Notes under the pieces: generated by a model
Seen by the model: only the letters and a program-made list of their open reading frames with translations
The model's database searches: none
Told to the model about the DNA's origin: nothing
Assembly: GCA_945861895.1 (NCBI GenBank)
Contig: CAMAWF010000003.1
Coordinates: 32,798 to 96,797, forward strand
Reading direction: 5' to 3'
Length of the DNA: 64,000 nucleotides
DNA from: Rhizobium sp. Q54
GTDB lineage: Bacteria; Pseudomonadota; Alphaproteobacteria; Rhizobiales; Xanthobacteraceae
Translations under genes and position numbers: made by a program
Part shown: positions 20,388-33,549 of the stretch, piece after piece
Position numbering within the stretch: position 1 is the first letter of the stretch
How the letters are laid out: every line of letters starts with the position of its first letter

Positions 20388-20528
20388 AATACATTTCAAT
20401 TCGACTGCCGCGCCAGCCGCAGGACATCGGCCTTGGCGCGCCAGTATGGACAGCAACCGGCAAGGTTGCCTCAGCTTGCGGCGCACAGTTGGATAAGCTA
20501 CGCAAAAGTACCTCTCGAGGGCCCAATC

Positions 20529-21851
20529 ATGGACGCGAAATCAGGCGGCACGACCGACAAAAAGACCGCAGCCGGCAGGCTTACCGTCGGCAACAAGAAT
20601 TACGATTTTCCGGTCTACAGCGGGAGCATCGGCCCGGACGTGATCGACATCGCCAAGCTTTATGGCGAGAGCGGGATGTTCACCTACGATCCCGGCTTCA
20701 CCTCGACGGCGAGTTGCGAGTCCAAGATCACCTATATCGACGGCGATGCCGGCGTGCTGCTTTATCGCGGCTATCCGATCGAGCAACTGGCAGAGCACGG
20801 CGATTTTCTCGAGACCTGTTATCTCCTGCTCTACGGTGAGCTCCCGACGCCGACGCAAAAGGCGGATTTCGACTATCGCGTGAACCGGCACACGATGGTG
20901 CACGAGCAGATGAGCCGGTTCTTCCAGGGCTTCCGCCGCGACGCGCATCCGATGGCGGTGCTGGTCGGCAGCGTCGGCGCGCTCTCCGCCTTCTATCACG
21001 ACTCCACCGATATTTCGGACCCGCATCAGCGCATGATCGCCTCGATCCGCATGATCGCGAAAATTCCGACGCTGTCCGCCATGGCTTACAAATATTCCGT
21101 CGGCCAGCCGTTCGTGTACCCCAAGAACGATCTCGATTATGCCTCGAATTTCCTGCGCATGTGCTTTGCGGTGCCGACCGAGGACTACACCGCCAATCCG
21201 GTGCTCGCGCGCGCGATGGACCGCATCTTCATCCTGCACGCCGACCACGAGCAAAACGCCTCGACGTCCACTGTGCGGCTTGCCGGCTCCTCCGGCGCCA
21301 ATCCGTTCGCCTGCATCGCGGCCGGCTGCGCGTGTTTGTGGGGCCCCGCGCATGGCGGCGCCAACGAAGCGGCGCTCAACATGCTGGGCGAAATCGCGCG
21401 GCCCGAACGCATTCCGGAATTCGTCAAGCGCGCCAAGGACAAGAACGATTCATTCCGCCTGATGGGCTTCGGCCATCGCGTCTACAAGAATTACGACCCG
21501 CGCGCCAAGATTTTGCAACAGACCTGCCACGAGGTCTTAAACGAACTCGGCATCAAGGACGATCCGCTGCTGGAAGTTGCGATGGAGCTGGAAAAGGTCG
21601 CGCTACACGACGACTATTTCCTGGAAAAGAAGCTGTATCCGAATGTCGACTTCTATTCGGGCATCACGCTCAAGGCGATGGGCTTCCCCACCACCATGTT
21701 CACCGTGCTGTTCGCGCTCGCGCGCACGGTCGGCTGGATCGCCCAGTGGAAAGAGATGATCGAGGATCCCAAGCAGAAGATCGGCCGGCCGCGCCAGCTT
21801 TATACCGGCGCCACGCGCCGCGACTACGTTCCGATCTCGCGGCGGAAGTAA
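20529..21851 (+). CDS. gltA: Citrate synthase (type II)
   Basis: [37 protein letters not shown] and YPNVDFYSG motifs. Start ATG 20529. Confidence 0.99.
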
Positions 21852-22126
21852 GCAGCCCTGACGTCGCGAGCGGTCCGAGACACCACCGCAAACATCGGAA
21901 GCTATCACCTTCGGCACCGTTGCGGCTGCGCTTGAACGTTGCGTTTGACTAAACGGCTCGCGCGCCCGATCGGTTGCCCGATCGCGGCCGACGCCCTGTG
22001 TCTGTCTTGTAGGAAGGCCGGAATAGGGCGTAGATTCATGCCGGTTCGGGAGCTACCCGCGACGATGGCGAGATAGCGAAGCGCGCCAGCCGGGTGCCGG
22101 CCGACGCCACACGATGGAGCACAGCC

Positions 22127-23140
22127 ATGATCCCAAGCGGTTCACCCATTCGATCTGGCGCTGCCGTCACCACTTCGATCGCCGCCGTTCTGCTGTCCGC
22201 CGTCCTTATGGCACCACTATCCCGGTCCGCCATCGCCGCGGAGCAGATGAAAGTCGTCGTTGGCTTCGCGGCCGGAAGCGGTGTCGATGTCATCGCGCGC
22301 CTGGTCGCGGAGCGCGTCCGCGTGGCGACGGGCACGACCGTTATCGTCGAGAACCGGCCCGGAGGCGGGGGACGCGTGGCCGCCGACGTGGTGGCCCATT
22401 CCGATCCGAACGGCGCCACACTTCTTTTCGCTCCTATCGTGACGACGGCCTTCACGCCGTTCGTGTTCAAGAAGCTGAGCTTCGATCCGCTCAAGGACCT
22501 CGCGCCGATCACGCGCGTGGGCAATTTCAAGTTCACACTTGCGCTCAACAACAACGTTCCGGCCGACACCGTGAAGGAATTCGTCGCCTATGTGAAAGCC
22601 AATCCCGGCAAGATCAGCTACGCGTCGGGGGGAGCGGGAACCCCGATGCATTTCCTCGGCGCGATGTTCAACCAGGCAACCGGCACCGATCTGCTGCACG
22701 TTCCGTATGGCGGGTCCGGCCCTGCCGCTGTTGCTATCCTGGGCGGCCAGGTGCACTCGGCATTCAACACCACGGTGGCGATGGGACCGCTGTACAAGGA
22801 CAAGAAGGTCAAGCTCTTGGCCGTTACCGGTTCCAAGCGCTCGCCGACACTTCCCGACGTTCCGACCTTCGGCGAGTTGAAGATGAATCTGGGGGACATC
22901 GAGAGCGCCGAAATGTGGTACGGCTTCCTCGCGCAAGGCAAAACGCCACCGGCCGTCATCCAGAAGCTCAATGCTATTCTGGTCGATGCGATCAAGGACC
23001 CGACTGTGCGCGCGCGATTGGAGACCCTCGATATCGAAGTGGCGACCGACACGCCGGAAGCGTTCGCCAAGATCGTCGCCGCCGACTACGAGCGCTGGGG
23101 TCGCGTCATCAAGGCGAGTGGTTTCACTTTGAGCGAATAG
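22127..23140 (+). CDS. Tripartite tricarboxylate transporter substrate-binding protein (Bug/TctC family)
   Basis: Signal peptide; VVGFAAGSGVDVIAR, VENRPGGGG, PYGGSGPA and PTLPDVPT motifs. GGAG RBS before ATG 22127. Confidence 0.93.
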   Translation: MIPSGSPIRSGAAVTTSIAAVLLSAVLMAPLSRSAIAAEQMKVVVGFAAGSGVDVIARLVAERVRVATGTTVIVENRPGGGGRVAADVVAHSDPNGATLLFAPIVTTAFTPFVFKKLSFDPLKDLAPITRVGNFKFTLALNNNVPADTVKEFVAYVKANPGKISYASGGAGTPMHFLGAMFNQATGTDLLHVPYGGSGPAAVAILGGQVHSAFNTTVAMGPLYKDKKVKLLAVTGSKRSPTLPDVPTFGELKMNLGDIESAEMWYGFLAQGKTPPAVIQKLNAILVDAIKDPTVRARLETLDIEVATDTPEAFAKIVAADYERWGRVIKASGFTLSE

Positions 23141-23159
23141 ATCCACGGCACCCGTACGC

Positions 23160-24008
23160 ATGAAGGTCATTCTCCTCGGGACAGGGGGCCCCCGGCCCGA
23201 CCCCAAGCGCAACGCCACGACAACGCTGATCCGAATCGGCGAGGAGAACATCCTGTTCGACGCCGGGCGCGGCGTGGTCATCCAACTGGTGCGCGCCGGT
23301 GTGCCGCTTGCCGCCGTCAATCCGGTGTTCATCACACATCATCACATCGACCATATCGGCGATCTCTACGACCTGATGCTCTCGACCTGGATGCACGGGC
23401 GCAAGGACGCGCTGCGCATCTATGGCCCGCCGGAGACCCGGCGCATCGTCGATACGCTGCTGACCCAGGTGTACGACAAGGACTGGCAATGGCGCTCGAT
23501 CGGCGAGCCGGCGCTCGGCGGCTGGAAGCCCGTGGTCGCCGAGGATGTCGCGACCGGCCTGGTGCTCGACACCGGCCGCTGGAAGGTAAGCGCCGACATC
23601 GTGAACCACGGCGACGGACTTGGATTCCCGGCCGCGTTCCTGGAGCGATGGACCTGCTACGGCTACCGGTTCGAGGCCGAAGGCAAGGTGATCGCCATCA
23701 GCGGCGACACGATCCCCTGCGACGGCCTCGACCGCCTCGCCCGCGACGCCGACGTCCTGGTGCACTGCTGCTACATGGCGACGGCGGAAGCCGAGAACGA
23801 GCACTTCCGCAAGCTGCTGCAGCACACGATGTCGGGCGGCGACACGGTCGGCAAGACCGCGACCCGGGCCAATGCGAAGACGCTGGTGCTGACCCACCAC
23901 CGGCCGCGCAAGGACGAGCGCATGCTAAAGAAGCTGGCCGAAGAGGTCGCCCGCGACTTCTCCGGCCGCATCGTCATCGGCGAGGATCTAACCGAGATCG
24001 ACGTGTAA
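23160..24008 (+). CDS. Metallo-beta-lactamase-fold hydrolase, RNase Z/AtsA-like subfamily
   Basis: LLGTGGP, FDAG, THHHIDH (HxHxDH), YGP, SGDT and LTHH motifs. Confidence 0.9.
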   Translation: MKVILLGTGGPRPDPKRNATTTLIRIGEENILFDAGRGVVIQLVRAGVPLAAVNPVFITHHHIDHIGDLYDLMLSTWMHGRKDALRIYGPPETRRIVDTLLTQVYDKDWQWRSIGEPALGGWKPVVAEDVATGLVLDTGRWKVSADIVNHGDGLGFPAAFLERWTCYGYRFEAEGKVIAISGDTIPCDGLDRLARDADVLVHCCYMATAEAENEHFRKLLQHTMSGGDTVGKTATRANAKTLVLTHHRPRKDERMLKKLAEEVARDFSGRIVIGEDLTEIDV

Positions 24009-24117
24009 CGGCAAAGCACATCCTATAGAGCCAGCCGTTCTATCTGTTCAACCTTGAGCGGCGCATTCCAGCGAGCCTTCGTCGCGACGCTGGCGAAGTC
24101 AATCGCCTCGCGTCGTT

Positions 24118-24582
24118 CTAAGCGTTACGCTCGCGGGCGAGCAGCCCATAGATCACGCCGAGGGCTATCCCGAAACCGCCGATGATTAACAGGCCTACCA
24201 TTATGCCGGTCGGATTAAAGCCCGCGAACAGCGGCTGCGGCGGATACTTGAACACGTATTGCCGGATCATCGGGAGCAGCGTCCAGTTGCTGACGAGAAG
24301 CATCAGCATGCCGAAGATCAGCCCCTTCAGCCACATCATGGTGCCCGGCAGCCGTTGATACACGAACGCGAAAAGAATTCCCCACAGCCCGCCCCAGAAG
24401 ATGTGGTTGGCCAGCACCGGTATCCATGCAAACGGCCCATAGCCGAGCGGCTGCAGCGACCATGGTTGCGTTCTCGTGAGGCCGGCGGTCCCGAGAATAT
24501 AGACGATCCCCTGATGAACGATCAGCACGGAAATTGCCGCGGCAACGAATCCGAGCACGATACGTCCTGCGGTGCCTTGCAT
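24118..24582 (-). CDS. Hypothetical 4-TM membrane protein
   Basis: 154 aa with four hydrophobic segments and an FWGGLWG motif. AGGGGG RBS before ATG 24582. Confidence 0.8.
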   Translation of the reverse strand: MQGTAGRIVLGFVAAAISVLIVHQGIVYILGTAGLTRTQPWSLQPLGYGPFAWIPVLANHIFWGGLWGILFAFVYQRLPGTMMWLKGLIFGMLMLLVSNWTLLPMIRQYVFKYPPQPLFAGFNPTGIMVGLLIIGGFGIALGVIYGLLARERNA

Positions 24583-24766
24583 GGTTTTCCCCCTAAAGGT
24601 TCTTGTTGAAGCGAACACACATTAGATGAATTCTGGAACGGTGTAGACGATAGCAGACATCCCAACGAAACAGGTCCGCGCTCCTGGAACTCCCCCTCCC
24701 CGCAAAGGCGGCGCGGGCCGGGATGCGGGGTGCTTAAAACCCAAAGCGGCCATTGCTCAACGCGCT

Positions 24767-25234
24767 CTAGTTGCGTCGGCGCAGCCAGTCGTCAACGCTG
24801 AGCCGCCCGGCGCCGCAAACAAACAAGAAGCCGAAGCCACCCAACATGGCCAAATTCTTATAGAAACTCGAAATCTGGGAGCGCTGCGCAGCGAGATCAG
24901 TAAACTCCCAATAGCGGTGAGAGCTGAATGTCGCGACCAGCATGAAGATAATCATCACCAGCACGACGTAACGGGTGGCGAGGCCGAGGATCAGCGCAAT
25001 GCCGCCAAAGAACTCGACCGGAACGGCGATGTAGGCGAGGAAGGGCGGCAACCCGCGCGACGGGAACGTGGCGGCAAAGGCTTCCACATTGAAGAGTTTG
25101 CCGTAGCCGCTGCGCACGAAGATCCAGCCCAGCAGAATGCGCCCGATCAGAAGAACGATATCGGCCGTGCTCGCGGCCAAACCGTCGGTGCACGACAGCG
25201 CGGGGTGCGAACTACTTTCGCTGCGGAGAGTCAT
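24767..25234 (-). CDS. DoxX-family membrane protein
   Basis: LLIGRILLGWIF, VEFFGGIALILG and FYKNLAMLGG...GAGRLSVD motifs. AAGGGG RBS before ATG 25234. Confidence 0.92.
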   Translation of the reverse strand: MTLRSESSSHPALSCTDGLAASTADIVLLIGRILLGWIFVRSGYGKLFNVEAFAATFPSRGLPPFLAYIAVPVEFFGGIALILGLATRYVVLVMIIFMLVATFSSHRYWEFTDLAAQRSQISSFYKNLAMLGGFGFLFVCGAGRLSVDDWLRRRN

Positions 25235-25404
25235 GACTTGTTTCCCCTTCATTGCTGTGGACCAGACGTCTTTGCGTCGCGTCCTCGCCGTGTTTGTCAT
25301 ATCAAACAAACGCAGTGAGCCGGTATTCCTCGCATGCAAAAATAAATCGCGTGAACAATTCCGAATAGACCTGCGCCTCCTGGCGCATGTCTCTTAAGGG
25401 CAAT

Positions 25405-26451
25405 CTACGAAGAGGTGGACCTGCCATTGCCATTCGCGGCAACCGCAGCCCCATCATAGGCCCAGGTCACGTAAGCGCCCGCCCAGGTGAAGCCGCCGCC
25501 GAAGGCAGCAAGGATCATCCGGTCGCCCGGCTTGAGCTTCGGTTCATAGTCCCATAGCGAAAGCGGGATCGTCGCCGCCGTGGTGTTGCCGTATTTGTGG
25601 ATCGTCACCATCACGCGATCCATCGGCAATCCCAGGCGCTCGGCCGTCGCCTCGATGATGCGCTTGTTGGCTTGATGCGGCACCAGCCAGTCGATCATGT
25701 CGGCGCGCAGATTGTTGCGCGCCATGATCTCGCGCGCGACCTCCGCCATTCGCGCAATCGCAAACTTGTAGACCGCGGCGCCTTCCTGATGGACGTAATG
25801 CAGGCGCTTGGCGACAGTTTCCGCCGTCGGCGGCATGCGGCTGCCGCCCGCCTTCTGGTGCAAATGCGGCATACCCGAGCCGTCGGAACGGATCACAGTG
25901 TCCATGATTCCGTAGCCGCGTTCGCTCGGCTCGATCAGAACAGCGCCGGCGCCATCGCCAAACAGCACGCAGGTTGCGCGGTCGGTATAGTCGATCACCG
26001 TCGACATTTTGTCGGCGCCGACCACGACGATCTTGCGGCACATGCCTGTGGCGATGAATTGCGTGGCGATGGTGAGCGCATAAATAAATCCGGAGCAGGC
26101 TGCCTGCACGTCGAAGCTGCCGATATTGCGCACGCCCACCATTTCGCAGATCAGATTTGCGGTGGAGGGAAACACGAAATCGGGCGTGGTGGTGGCGCAA
26201 ATCAGCAGATCGATGTCGTCCGGTTGCGTTCCGGTCTTCTCGAGCAGGCCGCGCACCGCCTCCGCGGCCATGTGCGAGGTGCCAAGCCCCTCGCCTTTGA
26301 GAATATGCCGCTCCTTGATGCCGGTGCGCTCGACGATCCAGACGTCGCTGGTATCGACCATGCGCGAGAGTTCGGCATTGGTGAGCAAATCCGGCGGCAA
26401 ATAACCGTGGACGGCGGTGATCGCGGCGCGGACAGGGATTGAAGCGGTCAA
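25405..26451 (-). CDS. fabH: 3-oxoacyl-ACP synthase III (FabH), Bacteroidota/FCB-like sequence type
   Basis: Catalytic triad motifs AACSG, PHQAN and GNT, plus FGDGAGA and AFGGGFTW. TTG start, so the exact start is uncertain. Confidence 0.93.
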   Translation of the reverse strand: MTASIPVRAAITAVHGYLPPDLLTNAELSRMVDTSDVWIVERTGIKERHILKGEGLGTSHMAAEAVRGLLEKTGTQPDDIDLLICATTTPDFVFPSTANLICEMVGVRNIGSFDVQAACSGFIYALTIATQFIATGMCRKIVVVGADKMSTVIDYTDRATCVLFGDGAGAVLIEPSERGYGIMDTVIRSDGSGMPHLHQKAGGSRMPPTAETVAKRLHYVHQEGAAVYKFAIARMAEVAREIMARNNLRADMIDWLVPHQANKRIIEATAERLGLPMDRVMVTIHKYGNTTAATIPLSLWDYEPKLKPGDRMILAAFGGGFTWAGAYVTWAYDGAAVAANGNGRSTSS

Positions 26452-26576
26452 GGCGGTTTCCAGGATTCCGGTGAGATGCGGATCGGTATTGGCGTCCGGC
26501 CATGCCGCCGGAGAGACTATAAATTACGCCGTTGCCGTCAGCGAAGCTACGGCTCCGATGCCGAAGTGGTTAAACG

Positions 26577-27776
26577 CTATTGGCGGCCGCGGCAGGCAAA
26601 ATCGAGAACTATTTCCGCCGCACGGTCGCTCGGCACCGCTTTACCGATTTCCATGATGGCATCGAGGCGGCGGAAAGCCTCGCTCTGCGACCGCCACTGC
26701 GGCGTGTCGTTAAGAAGTTGCAGCAATGCTTCGGCCAGCCGCGGCGGCGTGCACTCTTTCTGCAGGAACTCCGGCACGACGTTATCGCCGAGCACCAGAT
26801 TGGCCAAAATCACCGACGGGGTTTTAATCATCAGCCGCGCGATAAATTCCTCGAAGCGCGAGACTTTGTAAGCCGCCACCATCGGCACGCCGGCAATCGC
26901 AAGTTCCAGCGTTCCTGTCCCGGATTTCACCAGCGCGGCGCGGGCATTGCGAAAGGCGGCGTTTTTCTGCGCCGGATCGACCACCACCTGGGATGGCACC
27001 TGCCACATCGCGACCGCCTGTTTCACTTCGTCGTAGAGGTGCGGCACCGTCGGCACCACGATCTCCAGCGCGCCGGCGCGGCCCGCGACCGCGGCCACCG
27101 CCTCGGCGAATATCGCCAGCATCCGTTTGATCTCGCCGCGTCGGCTGCCGGGCATGACCAGCAAGACGGGCGGCGAGGCATTGCGCCTGCGTGCTTCATC
27201 CGCGTTCGGCCGCAGCTCATCGACGCGCTCGGTCAAAGGATGACCCACGAAACTGCAAGGCGGCCCGCCAAGCCGCGCGTGCACCGCGGGCTCGAACGGC
27301 AACAGCGCGAGCACGTGATCGATATAATCGCGCATGGAGCGTGCGCGCCACGGCCGCCAGGCCCACACGGAGGGTGAAACATAATTGACGATCGGGATTG
27401 CGGGATTTTTTGCGCGAACACGGCGCGCCACCCGCAGACTAAATTCCGGACTGTCGATGACGACCATTACGTGTGGAGGCATCGCTATCGCCGCCCGGAC
27501 GGTTGCGTGCAGGTGCCGCAGGATTGCCGGAACACGCCGCGGGATTGCGCTAAATCCGATGATCGCGAAATCGCCGATCGGAAACAAGCTCGCAAGCCCT
27601 TCCGCTTGCATGGCGTGGCCGCCCACCCCGAAAAATTGTATCGGCATGCTTGAACGCTTCCGTAGCGCCCGCATCAAAGAGCCGCCCAATCGATCGCCGG
27701 ATTCCTCGGCCGCAACCAGAAATATTCGCAGCCCTTCAGACTGGCGAGCAGACCCGGCCGCCGCGTCTTCGGTCAT
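26577..27776 (-). CDS. lpxB: Lipid-A-disaccharide synthase
   Basis: AAEESGD, IDSPEF, YVSPSVWAWR, LPFE, PGSRRGE and KSGTGTLE motifs. Confidence 0.97.
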   Translation of the reverse strand: MTEDAAAGSARQSEGLRIFLVAAEESGDRLGGSLMRALRKRSSMPIQFFGVGGHAMQAEGLASLFPIGDFAIIGFSAIPRRVPAILRHLHATVRAAIAMPPHVMVVIDSPEFSLRVARRVRAKNPAIPIVNYVSPSVWAWRPWRARSMRDYIDHVLALLPFEPAVHARLGGPPCSFVGHPLTERVDELRPNADEARRRNASPPVLLVMPGSRRGEIKRMLAIFAEAVAAVAGRAGALEIVVPTVPHLYDEVKQAVAMWQVPSQVVVDPAQKNAAFRNARAALVKSGTGTLELAIAGVPMVAAYKVSRFEEFIARLMIKTPSVILANLVLGDNVVPEFLQKECTPPRLAEALLQLLNDTPQWRSQSEAFRRLDAIMEIGKAVPSDRAAEIVLDFACRGRQ

Positions 27777-28672
27777 CGGCCCGATCCATCGGCGTTAACG
27801 CCGACCACGAACACGCCTGCCGCATCGGCTGCTTCGATCACCGCTTGCAGGTCCGGCACGATCGTTCCGCCCGCTTCGACGGCAATTCCGGCAAGTCCGG
27901 CCGCCGCCGCCAATCCGATGGTACGGGCGCCAAACGAGGGAAGGTCGATGCGGCGATCCTGATTCCGCTTGGTGGCTTTGACCAGCACCCCGGTGCGTGG
28001 CGGCAGTAAAATCCGGCCGTTCTCCCGCAGTTCCCGGCAGCGCGCGAGCATGAGATCGGTTCCTTCCGCCGCTTCCAATGCGATGACATGACCTGCCGCG
28101 ACCACGACCGCCTGGCCGACGTCGAGCGGTCCCAATGTGCGGATCACTTCGAAGCCGAGCGCGATATCGGCTTCGTCCTGGGACCGCGGCCGGCAAGCTC
28201 CGAGCGCTCCCGCCGGGGCGAGTATTTCGGGCGCCACCTCGTGTGCACCGAGCAGCCGGAAGCCTTCTTGCTCGAAAGCGCCAGCCATGGCGCTCAGAAG
28301 ATGATTATCGCCACCGCGAAAGGCGCGCGCGAGACGCGGCAGCAGGCTGATCGTTTTCCAGTCGAGGCGAAAATCCCGCAGCCGCGGCCGCGTCATCGTG
28401 CCGACGAAAACGAGGTCGCGGCAATTGCGCGCGCGCAGACGCGCGAGCAAACGGCCCGCTGCGCCGATCGATATCCATTCATAGGAAAAGCGCGCCACTT
28501 CCGGCTCGGCAAAGCCGCGGATGGCGAACATGACCACCGACCAGCCGGCCTTTTGCGCGGCGTCTGCGACCACGAACGGAAACGCGCCGCCGCCGCATAT
28601 AATTCCCAAAATTCCCGAATGCGACGCCGCGCGCGATGGCATTTGTTGCGATCCGCCGGCCGTCACAGTCAC
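27773..28672 (-). CDS. lpxI: UDP-2,3-diacylglucosamine pyrophosphatase LpxI
   Basis: LGIICGGG, DVGQAVV, EAAEGTD and QDRRIDLP motifs; located between lpxA and lpxB with GTGA/ATGA overlaps. Confidence 0.93.
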   Translation of the reverse strand: MTVTAGGSQQMPSRAASHSGILGIICGGGAFPFVVADAAQKAGWSVVMFAIRGFAEPEVARFSYEWISIGAAGRLLARLRARNCRDLVFVGTMTRPRLRDFRLDWKTISLLPRLARAFRGGDNHLLSAMAGAFEQEGFRLLGAHEVAPEILAPAGALGACRPRSQDEADIALGFEVIRTLGPLDVGQAVVVAAGHVIALEAAEGTDLMLARCRELRENGRILLPPRTGVLVKATKRNQDRRIDLPSFGARTIGLAAAAGLAGIAVEAGGTIVPDLQAVIEAADAAGVFVVGVNADGSGR

Positions 28673-29460
28673 GCCTCTCGTTCCGGCACGCAGAACGCCG
28701 CGCGCTCACCGCCGGCCCGGATGAAATCGATCACCGTGCGAACCAGCGGCTCGTTGCCATGCGCGGCCATCACATCATCCAGCCGTGCGCGCAGCGGACC
28801 GGCGTCGTCGAACAAGGCGCGGTAAGCTGCCCGCAATTCATGGATCTTCGATTTTTCAAATCCGCGCCGCTTGAGGCCGACGATGTTGAGCCCCTTCAAT
28901 CGCGCGCGATTGCCGATCGCCATGCCAAACGGAATGATATCGTTTTCAACTCCCGACAAAGCCCCCACATAGGCGGATTCGCCGATCCGCACGAATTGGT
29001 GAATGCCGCTGTGGCCCGAAATGATGACGTAGTCGCCGACGACGCAATGACCGGAGAGCCCCGAATAGCCGACCATCACAACGTTGCGTCCGACCTTGCA
29101 ATCGTGCGCGACATGCGCGCCCATCATGAGAAAACAATCGTCGCCGATTTCCGTCACCAGATCGCCTTTGTCCGATCCGACGTTGATCGTCACATATTCC
29201 CGCAGCAGGCAACGGGCGCCGATTTTAAGTTTGCCGGGACGGCCGGTATATCCGGTGAGTTGCGCCGGCTGGCCAATGGACGCGAAGGGAAATATCTCCG
29301 TGCCTTCGCCTATTTCCGTGTCGCCTTTGATAATGACGTTCTCATGCAGGCGGACGCCGCGGGAAAGCACAACCTTAGGTCCGACAACGCAAAACGGGCC
29401 GATCTCCACATCGGCAGCGGCGACGCCCTCGACCAGCGCAGTAGGATGGATCGACGCCAC
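28669..29460 (-). CDS. lpxA: Acyl-ACP--UDP-N-acetylglucosamine O-acyltransferase
   Basis: Hexapeptide repeats, AHVAHDC, HQF and GLNIVGLKRRGF motifs. GGAGGTG RBS before the GTG start. Confidence 0.96.
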   Translation of the reverse strand: MASIHPTALVEGVAAADVEIGPFCVVGPKVVLSRGVRLHENVIIKGDTEIGEGTEIFPFASIGQPAQLTGYTGRPGKLKIGARCLLREYVTINVGSDKGDLVTEIGDDCFLMMGAHVAHDCKVGRNVVMVGYSGLSGHCVVGDYVIISGHSGIHQFVRIGESAYVGALSGVENDIIPFGMAIGNRARLKGLNIVGLKRRGFEKSKIHELRAAYRALFDDAGPLRARLDDVMAAHGNEPLVRTVIDFIRAGGERAAFCVPEREA

Positions 29461-29543: not shown

Positions 29544-30002
29544 CTACGGCGCGTCCACGATCATGGCGCCGACTTCAGCTTCGGCAACGAGTTCACCGGC
29601 CACTTTGGCTTCTCCGCGAAACCACCACATGGATTTTCGCCGCGCTATTCGCGTCATGTGATATTCAATGGTGTCGCCCGGCACCACCGGCTTGCGGAAT
29701 TTCGCCTTGTCGATGGTAAGGAAGTAGACCAATTGCGGCGTCGCGCGCTTGGGCAGGCTGCGGAAACACAGCACGCCGGCGGTCTGCGCCATGCCTTCCA
29801 ATACCAGCACGCCAGGCATCACCGGGTTATTCGGAAAATGTCCGAGGAATTGCGGCTCGTTGGCGGTCACATTCTTGATGCCGATACCGTGCCGATCTCC
29901 ACGGATGCCGATGACGCGATCGACCATCAAGAACGGATACCGGTGCGGAAGCGCGGCAAGAATCTCGCTAATGCCGACAGCCTCAAGTGTCTCGCCGCTC
30001 AT
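29544..30002 (-). CDS. fabZ: 3-hydroxyacyl-ACP dehydratase
   Basis: [11 protein letters not shown] and GHFP...[12 protein letters not shown] motifs. Confidence 0.98.
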
Positions 30003-31081
30003 TCCTGTTCTCCCTCGTCAACCAGCTTTTGCGAGGGTTTCGCAGTCGTATCGTGTCGGCCCAGACGCCGCATTGCGGCGATCATCCGCCACCACTCGCG
30101 CAACGGCATGGCGGGAGAGCCTCCCCAGCGCTGGCCGGGAGGAATTTTTGACATGATGCCGCTTTGCGCGACGATCGCGGTGCCCGCCCCGATGCTGGCA
30201 TGGTCCGCAACGCCGACTTGTCCGCCGAGCATGACATAGTCCTCGATCGTGGCGCTGCCGGAGACACCAACCTGTCCGGCGAGAATGCAATGCCGTCCAA
30301 TTGACACGTTGTGGCCGATCTGGACCAGATTGTCGATCTTGGTGCCCTCGCCGATCATGGTATCGCGCAGGCCGCCACGATCGATTGTGCTATTGGCGCC
30401 GATCTCGACGTCGTCCTGGATGATGACGCGGCCGATCTGCGGAATCTTTTCGTGGCCCTTCGGGCCGGCGAGATAGCCAAATCCGTCCTGGCCGATGCGG
30501 CAGCCGGGATGGATAATCACGCGGTCACCGATCAGCGTATTGGCGATCGAGACGCCGGAGCCAATCGAGCAATCGCGGCCGATGCGAACCTCAGGTCCGA
30601 TCACCGCGGTCGCCCCGATCACACTGCCTGCGCCGATCTCGGCGCGCGGACCAACGACGGCGCCGGGATCGATAGTGGCGCCATTTTCTATCCGCGCCGA
30701 GGGATGCACCAAGGCTCCCGCGACGATCCCCGTCGCCTCGAACAGCGAAGACGGGCGCAATGCATGCGGGAACAGCGCGCGCGCGACCGCGACGAAAGCC
30801 CGGTAGGGCTCGCGCACGCGTAACACCACGACGCGCTCCGGCGCTTGCTTGCTAAATCGCTCGGAAGTAAGGCACGCCCCCGCATGGGTCGATGCAAACT
30901 GATCGGCATATTTCGCGTTGTCGAGAAAACTCAGGTCGGAGGGGCCGGCCCGATCGAGCGGCGCAATGTCGGCAATACGACGATCGAGCCGTGCGCCCGC
31001 AAGCGGTTCGGCGCCCGTGAGAGCGGCGATCTCGCCGATGCTGAGACCGCGCGTGTGCCTGAGGAAATGCGGCTCATTCAT
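29999..31081 (-). CDS. lpxD: UDP-3-O-acyl-glucosamine N-acyltransferase
   Basis: [28 protein letters not shown] and GQVG motifs. Start ATG 31081. Confidence 0.97.
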
Positions 31082-31116
31082 GCCAACAACGCCGCGGCCG
31101 GGCTCGCCGCCAAAAA

Positions 31117-33549
31117 TCAGAACTTTGCCCCACCACCGAAGCGGAATATCTGCGTCTTGTCGTAGCTTTCCTTCATGACCGGGAAAGCCACATCGAAGCG
31201 GAGCGGCCCGAACGGAGAATCCCAGATCAGGCCGACACCGACGGATGAACGTATGGAACCTGAATCGGCAACCGACAAGGTTTCGCCGGTAACGCTCCAG
31301 GTGGTCGGGCCTTTGTAGTCCCACAGCGAGCCGGCGTCGGCATAGACCGACATCTTGATGCCGACCTCTTTGGGCAGGAAATAGAGCGGGGTCTGAAGCT
31401 CCGCGGTCGCGCCCCAGTAGAGCGAGCCGCCAAGAGAGTCCTGGGTCGTATTGGCCGTGAGATCGCGCGGACCAAAACCGCGCGGGGCAAAACCGCGGAT
31501 CAGTTGCGGGCCCATCTGGAAATGATCGAGCATGCGCAGGTCCTTGCTGCCCCAGCTGGTAATGTGACCGCCCTGCACGCGCAGCAAACTGACGACGTCG
31601 GTGAATACTTCATAGTAGTTGCGAATATCCGTCGAGGTGCGAACGAAATTCACGTCGCCACCGACGCCCGCGAAGTCCTGCTTGATGTCCGCGTACAAGC
31701 CGCTCGTCGGGCTCTTGTTGTTGTCGAGCGTGTTGTAGGCAAGCGTATAGCCGAGCAGCGAGGTGATGACTGCGCCCGCCGCCAGCTCCCTGCGCACCGC
31801 CAGCGAAGACTCGCCGTCGGCAAAGCAAGCATCCGACGGTAAGACGCCAGCTCCACCATTTATCGGCGCCGCTGCCGACAAAATACAATTGTTATACTGG
31901 GTGGGCAGCTTCACTTCCTGGCGATAGATCGAGTAGCGCGGCTGCAACGACAATTCTTCCGTCAGCCCCAGACCGAGACGTAGATTGGTGCCAACGGTAT
32001 TCGTCACATAAGACACGTTACTGGACGACGATGTGTGCTTGCCGAAAAGATCGATGCCGCCGGCCATCCGGTAGCCGAGGAAATAAGGCTCGATGAACGA
32101 CAATTCGAAGCCGCGCGAGCGCTGGCCGTAACTGACGGAGGCTTTGGCGTATTGGCCGCGGCCGAGCAGATTGCGTTCAGCAACGCTGACCTCCGCCAGA
32201 AATCCATCCGAAGTCGAGAAGCCGCCTGCGACGGAGAATTCCCCGGTAGAGGTTTCTTCCACTTCGACATTGAGCACAATGCGGTCGGGCGCCGAGCCCG
32301 GCTCATTGGTAATCTTCACCGTCTTGAAATAGTTCAGATTCTTCAGGCGGCGCTCGGCCCGGTCGACCAGCGCGCGGTTGTAGGCATCTCCCTCGCCGAT
32401 ATCGAATTCGCGGCGGATCACATAATCCCGCGTGCGCGAATTGCCGCGAATATTGATGCGCTCGATATAGGCGCGCGGTCCCGCCTCGACCACGAAAACC
32501 AGATTGATGGTCTTGGTCTCGAAATTACGGTCGCCGCGCGGACGTACCGATGCGAAGGCATAACCGCGTTTGGCCGCTTCAATCGTCATGCCTTCGACGG
32601 ATTTTTCGACGGCCTCGGCGTTGTAGATGCTCCCGGCGCCGACATACAGCTTCGAACGCAACGATTGCGGGTCAACCGAGCTGACGTTGGACACTACGTC
32701 GAGTGTGCCGATGCGGTATTGGCTGCCTTCCTCGATCGTGAAGGTGACGATAAAGCCCTTTTTCGCCGGATCGTACTCGCCGACGGCTGCGACGATGCGG
32801 ATATCGGCGTAGCCGTGTTTTAGATAGAAGCGCCGCAATAGATCGCGATCGGCCTCGATCCGGTCGGGGTCGTAGATGTCGCCGGTCTGAAGAAAACTCA
32901 GCCAGTTGCTCTCGTTGGTCTTGATGACGTTCTTCAGGCGGCCGTTGGAAAAGGAACTATTGCCGACGAAGCTGATCAGCTTGACGCCGGTCTTTTCGCC
33001 TTCGCTGATTTCAAAGATCAGATCGACCCGGTTGTTGGGCAATTCGACGATCTTGGGCTCGACGCGAACGTCAAAGCGCCCGTTCCGGCGATACACTTCG
33101 ACGATGCGTTGCACGTCCGACTGCACCATCGGCCGTGACAACGTCCCGCGCGGCTTTGACTGCACTTCAAGGGCAAGCTGCTCGTCCTTGGTCTTCTTGT
33201 TGCCTTCGAAAACCACGCGGTTGATGACTGGGTTTTCGATGACGGTGACCACCAGCCGGCCGCCGGATTGATTGGTGCGAACGTCCTGAAACAGGCCGGT
33301 GGCGTAAAGCGCCTTGAGGCCTTCGTCGATCTTGACGGCATCGAGGCGCTGGCCGGGAGCGGCCCGGAAATAGGAACGGATGGTATCCGCCTCGACCCGG
33401 CGGTTGCCTTCGACAACGATTGCGGTTGCGGTCTGGGCGACCGCGGCTCCAGACCAGCCCACGGACGCGACGGCCGAGACGACAAGGATGCCGCCGAGGA
33501 CAACGCTGGCGACTGCCAGTCCCCGAACCACCCGCAAACAACGTCCCAT
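31117..33549 (-). CDS. bamA: Outer membrane protein assembly factor BamA
   Basis: Five POTRA repeats, IRGF loop motif and C-terminal FRFGGGAKF. Confidence 0.98.
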   Translation of the reverse strand: MGRCLRVVRGLAVASVVLGGILVVSAVASVGWSGAAVAQTATAIVVEGNRRVEADTIRSYFRAAPGQRLDAVKIDEGLKALYATGLFQDVRTNQSGGRLVVTVIENPVINRVVFEGNKKTKDEQLALEVQSKPRGTLSRPMVQSDVQRIVEVYRRNGRFDVRVEPKIVELPNNRVDLIFEISEGEKTGVKLISFVGNSSFSNGRLKNVIKTNESNWLSFLQTGDIYDPDRIEADRDLLRRFYLKHGYADIRIVAAVGEYDPAKKGFIVTFTIEEGSQYRIGTLDVVSNVSSVDPQSLRSKLYVGAGSIYNAEAVEKSVEGMTIEAAKRGYAFASVRPRGDRNFETKTINLVFVVEAGPRAYIERINIRGNSRTRDYVIRREFDIGEGDAYNRALVDRAERRLKNLNYFKTVKITNEPGSAPDRIVLNVEVEETSTGEFSVAGGFSTSDGFLAEVSVAERNLLGRGQYAKASVSYGQRSRGFELSFIEPYFLGYRMAGGIDLFGKHTSSSSNVSYVTNTVGTNLRLGLGLTEELSLQPRYSIYRQEVKLPTQYNNCILSAAAPINGGAGVLPSDACFADGESSLAVRRELAAGAVITSLLGYTLAYNTLDNNKSPTSGLYADIKQDFAGVGGDVNFVRTSTDIRNYYEVFTDVVSLLRVQGGHITSWGSKDLRMLDHFQMGPQLIRGFAPRGFGPRDLTANTTQDSLGGSLYWGATAELQTPLYFLPKEVGIKMSVYADAGSLWDYKGPTTWSVTGETLSVADSGSIRSSVGVGLIWDSPFGPLRFDVAFPVMKESYDKTQIFRFGGGAKF

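Follow-up and report, generated by a model that had tools for sequence, protein, structure and literature searches.

A Bacteroidota-type second FabH fixed behind the lipid A genes of the Pseudolabrys group, a candidate starter of branched fatty acids

β-Ketoacyl-ACP synthase III (KAS III, FabH; ACP, acyl carrier protein) joins an acyl-coenzyme A (acyl-CoA) primer to malonyl-ACP, with that primer determining the methyl end of each chain; by selecting the starter unit, FabH decides between straight and branched chains. FabHA and FabHB of Bacillus subtilis and the FabH of Staphylococcus aureus, Listeria monocytogenes and Xanthomonas campestris use branched primers. Vibrio cholerae FabH2 (PDB 4wzu), Pseudomonas aeruginosa PA3286 and Ralstonia solanacearum RSp0194 are second KAS III enzymes, presumably with another primer range; to our knowledge, none of the three has been reported as a Bacteroidota-derived gene at the end of a lipid A operon. 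A literature search found no published description of a Bacteroidota-type FabH at the end of a lipid A string. Here we describe such a gene, fabH2, in a 64,000-nt stretch of alphaproteobacterial DNA (the window; Rhizobium sp. Q54, assembly GCA_945861895.1, contig CAMAWF010000003.1, positions 32,798 to 96,797), with coordinates counted from its first letter. The enzyme family is ordinary; what is particular is that the housekeeping FabH of another phylum is fixed as the last gene of a lipid A string. A Bacteroidota-type origin and the fixation of fabH2 are, in our judgement, highly probable, and the whole account, in which a branched-primer role is added to origin and fixation, stands at even chances. 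The likeness of FabH2 to the branched-primer enzymes lies in the proposed mode of working only: they are no close relatives, and S. aureus FabH (PDB 1zow) is not a close match at 258 bits. The three proteobacterial paralogues share with FabH2 the status of a second KAS III and fall in other clades and other gene contexts.

fabH2 occupies 25405..26451 on the minus strand as an open reading frame (ORF) of 348 amino acids (aa) with a TTG start, behind lpxD-fabZ-lpxA-lpxI-lpxB on the same strand, as an earlier note on this DNA had described. The protein exceeds the cut-offs of TIGR00747 (377.8 bits; cut-off 292.1) and NF006829 (409.4 bits; cut-off 249) and is matched by both Pfam KAS III domains, ACP_syn_III (PF08545) and ACP_syn_III_C (PF08541). 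The triad Cys119/His259/Asn289, encoded on the minus strand at 26095-26097, 25675-25677 and 25585-25587, aligns with C112/H244/N274 of Escherichia coli FabH. As read from the sequence, FabH2 is a complete, intact KAS III that, like every FabH, would join an acyl-CoA primer to malonyl-ACP. The four motifs singled out earlier all recur in the translation: AAITAVHGYLP at residue 9, ILKGEGLGTS at 50, ADKMSTVIDYTDRATC at 146 and WAYDG at 330, beyond which follows a variable tail of 10-25 aa. Thousands of near-identical proteins occur in metagenomes under the labels Pseudolabrys sp., Xanthobacteraceae bacterium and Alphaproteobacteria bacterium, and the carrier lineage is very common in soil metagenomes and mostly uncultured.

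That FabH2 belongs to the FabH type of Bacteroidota and Rhodothermota (the Fibrobacteres-Chlorobi-Bacteroidetes group, FCB) is solid at the level of sequence comparison. A search covering 1.8 billion representative proteins places its nearest clusters outside the family in metagenome-assembled genomes (MAGs) of Desulfobacterales (62% identity) and of Bacteroides sp. (54%), and its nearest ESM Atlas clusters are Bacteroidota. A locus scan of one genome per species, queried with an alignment of FabH2 relatives, returned 80 loci: 76 from Bacteroidota (Cytophagia, Flavobacteriia, Sphingobacteriia, Chitinophagia and Bacteroidia), two from Rhodothermales, one from a Hyphomicrobiales MAG (FabH2) and one from a bin labelled Lachnospiraceae. 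Identity to FabH2 is 68% for the enzyme of Dyadobacter sp. CY347, 66% for the one in a Cytophagales MAG and 51-64% across other Bacteroidota, and a FabH of this type is present in all 91 sampled genomes of the Dyadobacter order, at 46-70% identity. Three rare changes are common to FabH2 and FCB FabH and absent in ten outgroups: one additional residue in ILKGEG, two fewer in LWDY--E and the tail W(A/G)Y(D/N). Thirty alignment columns are common to FabH2 and FCB FabH only, versus two common to FabH2 and the outgroups only.

Phylogenetic analysis places FabH2 accordingly among the FCB sequences. The careful maximum-likelihood (ML) tree, built on 62 rows under LG+C20+F+G4 with posterior mean site frequencies (PMSF) and replacing a sparser quick tree, splits FCB plus FabH2 from the outgroups with 100/100 support, a split recovered at 98-100 in three other trees. 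In the careful tree the FabH2 clade is monophyletic (100/99), and its grouping with six Cytophagales FabH, among them the one from Dyadobacter sp. CY347, has 100/100 support. Not one of 200 bootstrap trees unites the FCB rows to the exclusion of FabH2, and in other respects the gene tree agrees with the Bacteroidota classes. The ML trees, the 68-70% identity to Cytophagales FabH, the indels, the WAYD tail and the 30 columns uphold the Bacteroidota/Rhodothermus affiliation that the earlier note had proposed from motifs; clustering with ordinary alphaproteobacterial FabH, which it had named as the contrary outcome, did not occur in the trees. A Cytophagales donor, Spirosomataceae-like, is the best-supported reading of these sequences, short of formal proof.

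The FabH of Dyadobacter sp. CY347 (Spirosomataceae; NZ_JAKFFT010000007.1, locus L062) resembles FabH2 over its full length, with 68-70% identity to the group, the same indels, a KWAYD-type tail and the same triad. The genes differ in setting: Dyadobacter fabH stands in plsX-fabH-efp-accB-accC with a GC content at third codon positions (GC3) of ~0.46, whereas fabH2 follows lpxB, has a GC3 of 0.80 and is a second copy. The two nearest Bacteroidota loci both show a plsX-fabH-(efp)-accB context, in which efp and accC were verified for Dyadobacter, and the lpxB context in place of the plsX context fits a transferred copy. The Dyadobacter sp. CY347 genome and the Cytophagales MAG (G151 and G152) each encode two FabH above the TIGR00747 cut-off, of which the plsX-linked one is akin to FabH2. 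Desulfobacterales FabH (P0121 and its cluster members), 62% identical to FabH2, branches with Marivirga/Cyclobacterium, apart from the FabH2 clade, and looks like the outcome of a separate interphylum transfer. The FabH of the contig labelled Lachnospiraceae bacterium (CAVCSC010000077.1, locus L097) falls inside Prevotella sequences with 99 support; this contig is probably misbinned and shows no Firmicutes gene.

The genome that carries fabH2 (3.77 Mb in 194 contigs, 99.8% complete), whose DNA is found in DNA sequencing runs of lake water, sediment and groundwater and in no RNA run listed, encodes two FabH above the TIGR00747 cut-off. FabH1 (406 bits) lies on another contig (C21) between plsX and ihfA, the usual alphaproteobacterial arrangement. 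FabH2 is therefore a second FabH, the separate plsX-linked copy that the earlier note had wanted sought has been found, and the plsX-fabH-ihfA norm it cited for alphaproteobacteria holds in this genome. FabH1, the housekeeping enzyme, shares the TIGR00747 family, the fold domains and the triad with FabH2 and is 43-44% identical to it, but belongs to another, well separated clade, occupies another locus and lacks the FCB indels and tail. FabH2, in turn, has neither the plsX-fabH-ihfA locus nor a place in the alphaproteobacterial housekeeping clade. Almost all fabH2 carriers retain FabH1, and the persistence of both genes agrees better with divided tasks than with displacement of one by the other.

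The direction of transfer, from Bacteroidota into this family, is read from the distribution: in Bacteroidota the type is universal, with a copy in every named class sampled, and serves as the housekeeping enzyme, whereas among Alphaproteobacteria it was found in this family only. A FabH2-type protein was found in none of 400 genomes of other alphaproteobacteria from more than 200 other families at E <= 1e-105, and in 12 further families of the order the native FabH, ~44% identical to FabH2, is the only one. Within the family, fabH2 is present in ~30 of 121 sampled genomes from ~17 genera, the copies being 66-85% identical and clearly set apart from the next matches at 46%; in the genus, 112 of the 123 genomes with at least 90% completeness carry it. 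The order lpxD-fabZ-lpxA-lpxI-lpxB-fabH2 is kept in all 25 loci examined; the lpxB-fabH2 spacer measures 49-137 nt in 24 loci, the remaining one having 859 nt. Gene insertions lie downstream of fabH2 (in the window and at loci L018, L020 and L124), never between lpxB and fabH2. In non-carriers, lpxB adjoins a convergent gltA, or TctC and gltA, and three of them (G150, G077 and G136) hold no fabH2 remnant at E <= 1e-3. Because all copies form one monophyletic clade at one site, the distribution points to a single gain in the ancestor of the Pseudolabrys group (GTDB Xanthobacteraceae), followed by several losses. By BamA identity, carriers are enriched among the closest relatives yet interleaved with three non-carriers (g29, g55 and g60), and this interleaving leaves BamA identity not decisive as a proxy for carriers forming one clade.

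The gene has a GC content of 0.624 and a GC3 of 0.797, within the 0.70-0.81 of most neighbours (0.89 in one, a metallo-β-lactamase (MBL) gene) and close to the 0.82 of the FabH1 gene, and the host-like codon usage reported earlier is borne out. The composition is fully ameliorated, and because of this and of the same site being kept in ~17 genera the acquisition reads as old, in agreement with the earlier proposal of an old horizontal acquisition. Median pairwise nonsynonymous divergence (dN) is 0.17 for fabH2, compared with 0.36-0.37 for lpxB, lpxA and lpxD and 0.24 for fabZ; its ratio to synonymous divergence (dN/dS) is 0.20 versus 0.34-0.38, rough values with dS near saturation. By these measures, fabH2 is strongly constrained. 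In four few-contig genus genomes (G005, at C2:932476-933499, and G306, G331 and G333), FabH2 is split at the same residue, ~268-269, into two frames, which reflects either a genuine frameshift common to all four or the same assembly error made repeatedly.

The lpxB-fabH2 spacer (26452..26576, minus strand) measures 125 nt, exactly the gap given in the earlier note, and its folding is not significant (z-score -0.57). A Shine-Dalgarno-like GGA stretch lies 8-12 nt ahead of the TTG start. Among the fabH2 orthologues aligned, the shared start position holds TTG or GTG in most and ATG in no genus member, and a conserved GGA(T/A)TCC precedes it. A site scan combined with folding detected no significant terminator between lpxB and fabH2, and terminator-like sites are at chance level (five found versus 4.2 expected). 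The short spacer and the lack of a detectable terminator make read-through plausible, and lpx transcripts probably extend into fabH2, perhaps supplemented by an internal promoter. The hexamer TATAGT, proposed earlier as an own -10 element, is present at 26521..26516 on the minus strand, 65 nt ahead of the start, but its -10 role is unsupported: the hexamer is not conserved, and a consensus scan of 24000-28000 returned no sigma-70-like promoter site. Most genus relatives have at this position a -35-like CTTGC, followed 17-19 nt on by GTATGT/TATGC. This semi-conserved pair resembles the alphaproteobacterial sigma-70 consensus and is broken by an insertion in the window's own spacer. About 18 nt past the fabH2 stop, a GC-rich hairpin without a U-tract (25372..25387, minus strand; z-score -1.6, not significant) may be where the transcription unit ends.

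Bacteroidota lipids and lipid A are rich in iso/anteiso chains, FabH2 stems from a lineage whose main FabH starts iso/anteiso acids, and it has long been kept beside FabH1; for these reasons, a primer range that includes branched-chain acyl-CoAs is considered the most likely function, at roughly even odds. In the proposed mechanism, FabH2 would take isobutyryl-, isovaleryl- and 2-methylbutyryl-CoA, besides or instead of acetyl-CoA; transcription of the lpx genes would read into fabH2, with an internal promoter possible; and the resulting minor pool of branched acyl-ACP would be usable by LpxA/LpxD and by phospholipid acyltransferases. That the captured Bacteroidota FabH gives the Pseudolabrys group iso/anteiso chains, including iso-3-hydroxy acids in lipid A, is a more tentative step, towards which we lean less than away. 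A swap of FabH alone has produced ~34% branched fatty acids in a straight-chain proteobacterium (PMC5011732). Among the pocket residues (E. coli numbering), Phe87 is kept in FabH1 and FabH2, and Leu142 and Met207 are replaced by Met and Gln in FabH2 and FCB FabH, substitutions that by themselves cannot be interpreted in functional terms.

Published fatty-acid profiles offer a weak and partly doubtful lead for a branched role. Iso-C15:0, iso-C15:0 3-OH, iso-C17:1 and iso-C17:0 are given as minor acids of Pseudoxanthobacter and/or Pseudolabrys, which are listed together (PMC7397251). Pseudolabrys taiwanensis is reported with ~56% iso/anteiso acids, and Rugositalea oryzae YC6860 and Rhodoplanes elegans in the same study with none (PMC12470966). 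The YC6860 genome (G150) lacks fabH2, and a genome of the same genus as the window that is probably P. taiwanensis (G353) carries lpxB-fabH2 at 80% identity. If FabH2 starts branched chains, the peculiar iso-acid reports for Pseudolabrys would be explained and an unusual lipid A would be predicted. Interphylum transfer would then have altered envelope chemistry in an alphaproteobacterial lineage, and the iso/anteiso phospholipid fatty acid (PLFA) markers used in soil for Gram-positives and Bacteroidota would be partly alphaproteobacterial. If FabH2 uses acetyl-CoA only, it would be a clean case of a foreign isozyme kept for regulatory reasons.

Several observations weigh against the origin and role set out above. 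The approximately unbiased (AU) test leaves a tree with all FCB rows together standing (p = 0.117, log-likelihood 27 lower); on the sparser earlier set, for which the free search was poor, p was 0.80 and the constrained tree was the likelier one. Discrete characters for nesting within Cytophagales are balanced, two versus two. Eleven genus genomes with at least 90% completeness lack fabH2, so the gene is dispensable in some backgrounds. The literature searched contained no Bacteroidota FabH characterised for primer specificity, and Xanthomonas FabH, 61% identical to E. coli FabH, nonetheless prefers branched primers (PMC5011732), which makes primer choice unpredictable from sequence. The P. 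taiwanensis profile itself lacks 18:1w7c and 16:0 and includes 10-methyl-16:0 and 13% 20:0 (PMC12470966 Table S1), and may be a contaminant, culture or peak-call artefact. FabA is encoded in all 98 good-quality family genomes and in 120 of 121 overall, with or without fabH2. A gap between convergent genes is, moreover, generically permissive for insertion, so that the link to lipid A may be incidental.

A replacement of unsaturated by branched acids in carriers was considered and is ruled out by FabA scoring above cut-off whether or not a genome carries fabH2; a complete changeover to branched lipids is unlikely. The three genomes of the genus in the family sample all have fabA too, at odds with the published P. 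taiwanensis profile.

Other explanations differ from the branched-primer account in what FabH2 starts, which lipid it serves or how it came to the locus. Were the position incidental, fabH2 would have settled in a permissive lpxB/gltA gap and would serve general membrane lipids, for example fluidity in cold or acid soils and waters. The remnant-free junction of lpxB with convergent gltA in non-carriers is consistent with this, and the semi-conserved CTTGC-N17-19-GTATGT pair in the genus suggests independent expression; on the other side, later insertions lie downstream of fabH2 only and the spacer stays at or below 137 nt in 24 of 25 loci. We regard an incidental position as possible but doubtful, and it bears on the target lipid alone and leaves room for a branched-primer mechanism. 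Somewhat less probable still is a redundant acetyl-CoA initiator, which would make the same straight chains as FabH1 and be kept for the supply of 3-hydroxyacyl-ACP to lipid A or for different regulation or inhibition. The place of fabH2, a short spacer behind lpxB and with no significant terminator between them, suits such an enzyme, as do FabA in all carriers and the general knowledge that Cytophagales make many straight-chain acids too, so that their FabH must accept acetyl-CoA. Pseudolabrys relatives with reported profiles have mostly 18:1w7c and 16:0 (PMC12470966), and the dominance of these acids also agrees with it. A plain duplicate, however, would be expected to drift or vanish, and the dN of fabH2 is half that of its neighbours over ~17 genera; FabH2 is a foreign type and no copy of FabH1, and minor iso-branched acids are cited for Pseudolabrys.

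P. aeruginosa PA3286 and V. cholerae FabH2 feed medium-chain acyl-CoAs into fatty-acid synthesis, and a recycling enzyme of this kind could shortcut octanoyl-CoA and similar products of β-oxidation to the C12-C16 3-hydroxyacyl chains of lipid A. Here, too, a second FabH stands next to a housekeeping one, and V. cholerae FabH2 is among the PDB matches at 235 bits; some FabH, such as that of X. campestris pv. campestris, accept C4-C10 as well as branched primers (PMC5011732). Recycling is nevertheless improbable, with FabH2 no nearer to the recycling enzymes than to E. coli FabH, with Phe87, which closes the pocket to long primers, conserved, and with housekeeping initiators as its nearest relatives. 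Vertical descent of an ancient FabH paralogue that was lost nearly everywhere else would dispense with transfer, and the AU test leaves room for a position outside the sampled FCB sequences. Against it stand the absence from 400 other alphaproteobacterial genomes, the identity of 68-70% to Cytophagales FabH compared with 43% to FabH1, the 30 signature columns and three indels common with FCB FabH, and a gene tree that otherwise follows the Bacteroidota classes, and we consider it very improbable.

The string behind which fabH2 stands is encoded entirely on the minus strand. lpxB, for lipid-A-disaccharide synthase (26577..27776), scores 245.8 bits with TIGR00215 (cut-off 190) and is preceded by an lpxI-like gene for UDP-2,3-diacylglucosamine diphosphatase (27773..28672), which at 244 bits with NF047836 is under the cut-off of 400 and fits by operon position. 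lpxA (28669..29460; TIGR01852, 303.7 bits) and fabZ (29544..30002; TIGR01750, 182.3 bits) follow upstream. Between fabH2 and gltA, the citrate synthase gene convergent with the lpx-fabH2 string (20433..21851, plus strand), the window has four genes (22094..25339), where in most genus relatives gltA adjoins fabH2. These encode a TctC receptor (22094-23140, plus strand), an MBL-fold hydrolase (23160-24008, plus strand), a 166-aa membrane protein that matches no Pfam or NCBIfam family (24118-24618, minus strand) and DoxX (24767-25339, minus strand). At the upstream end of the cluster lies bamA (31117..33549, minus strand), an ORF with family orthologues 50-72% identical. The longest ORF of lpxD (29999..31324, minus strand; TIGR01853, 367.9 bits over residues 99-424) shares 208 nt with the end of bamA (31117-31324), and the true lpxD start is probably further downstream, because the family match begins only at about residue 94.

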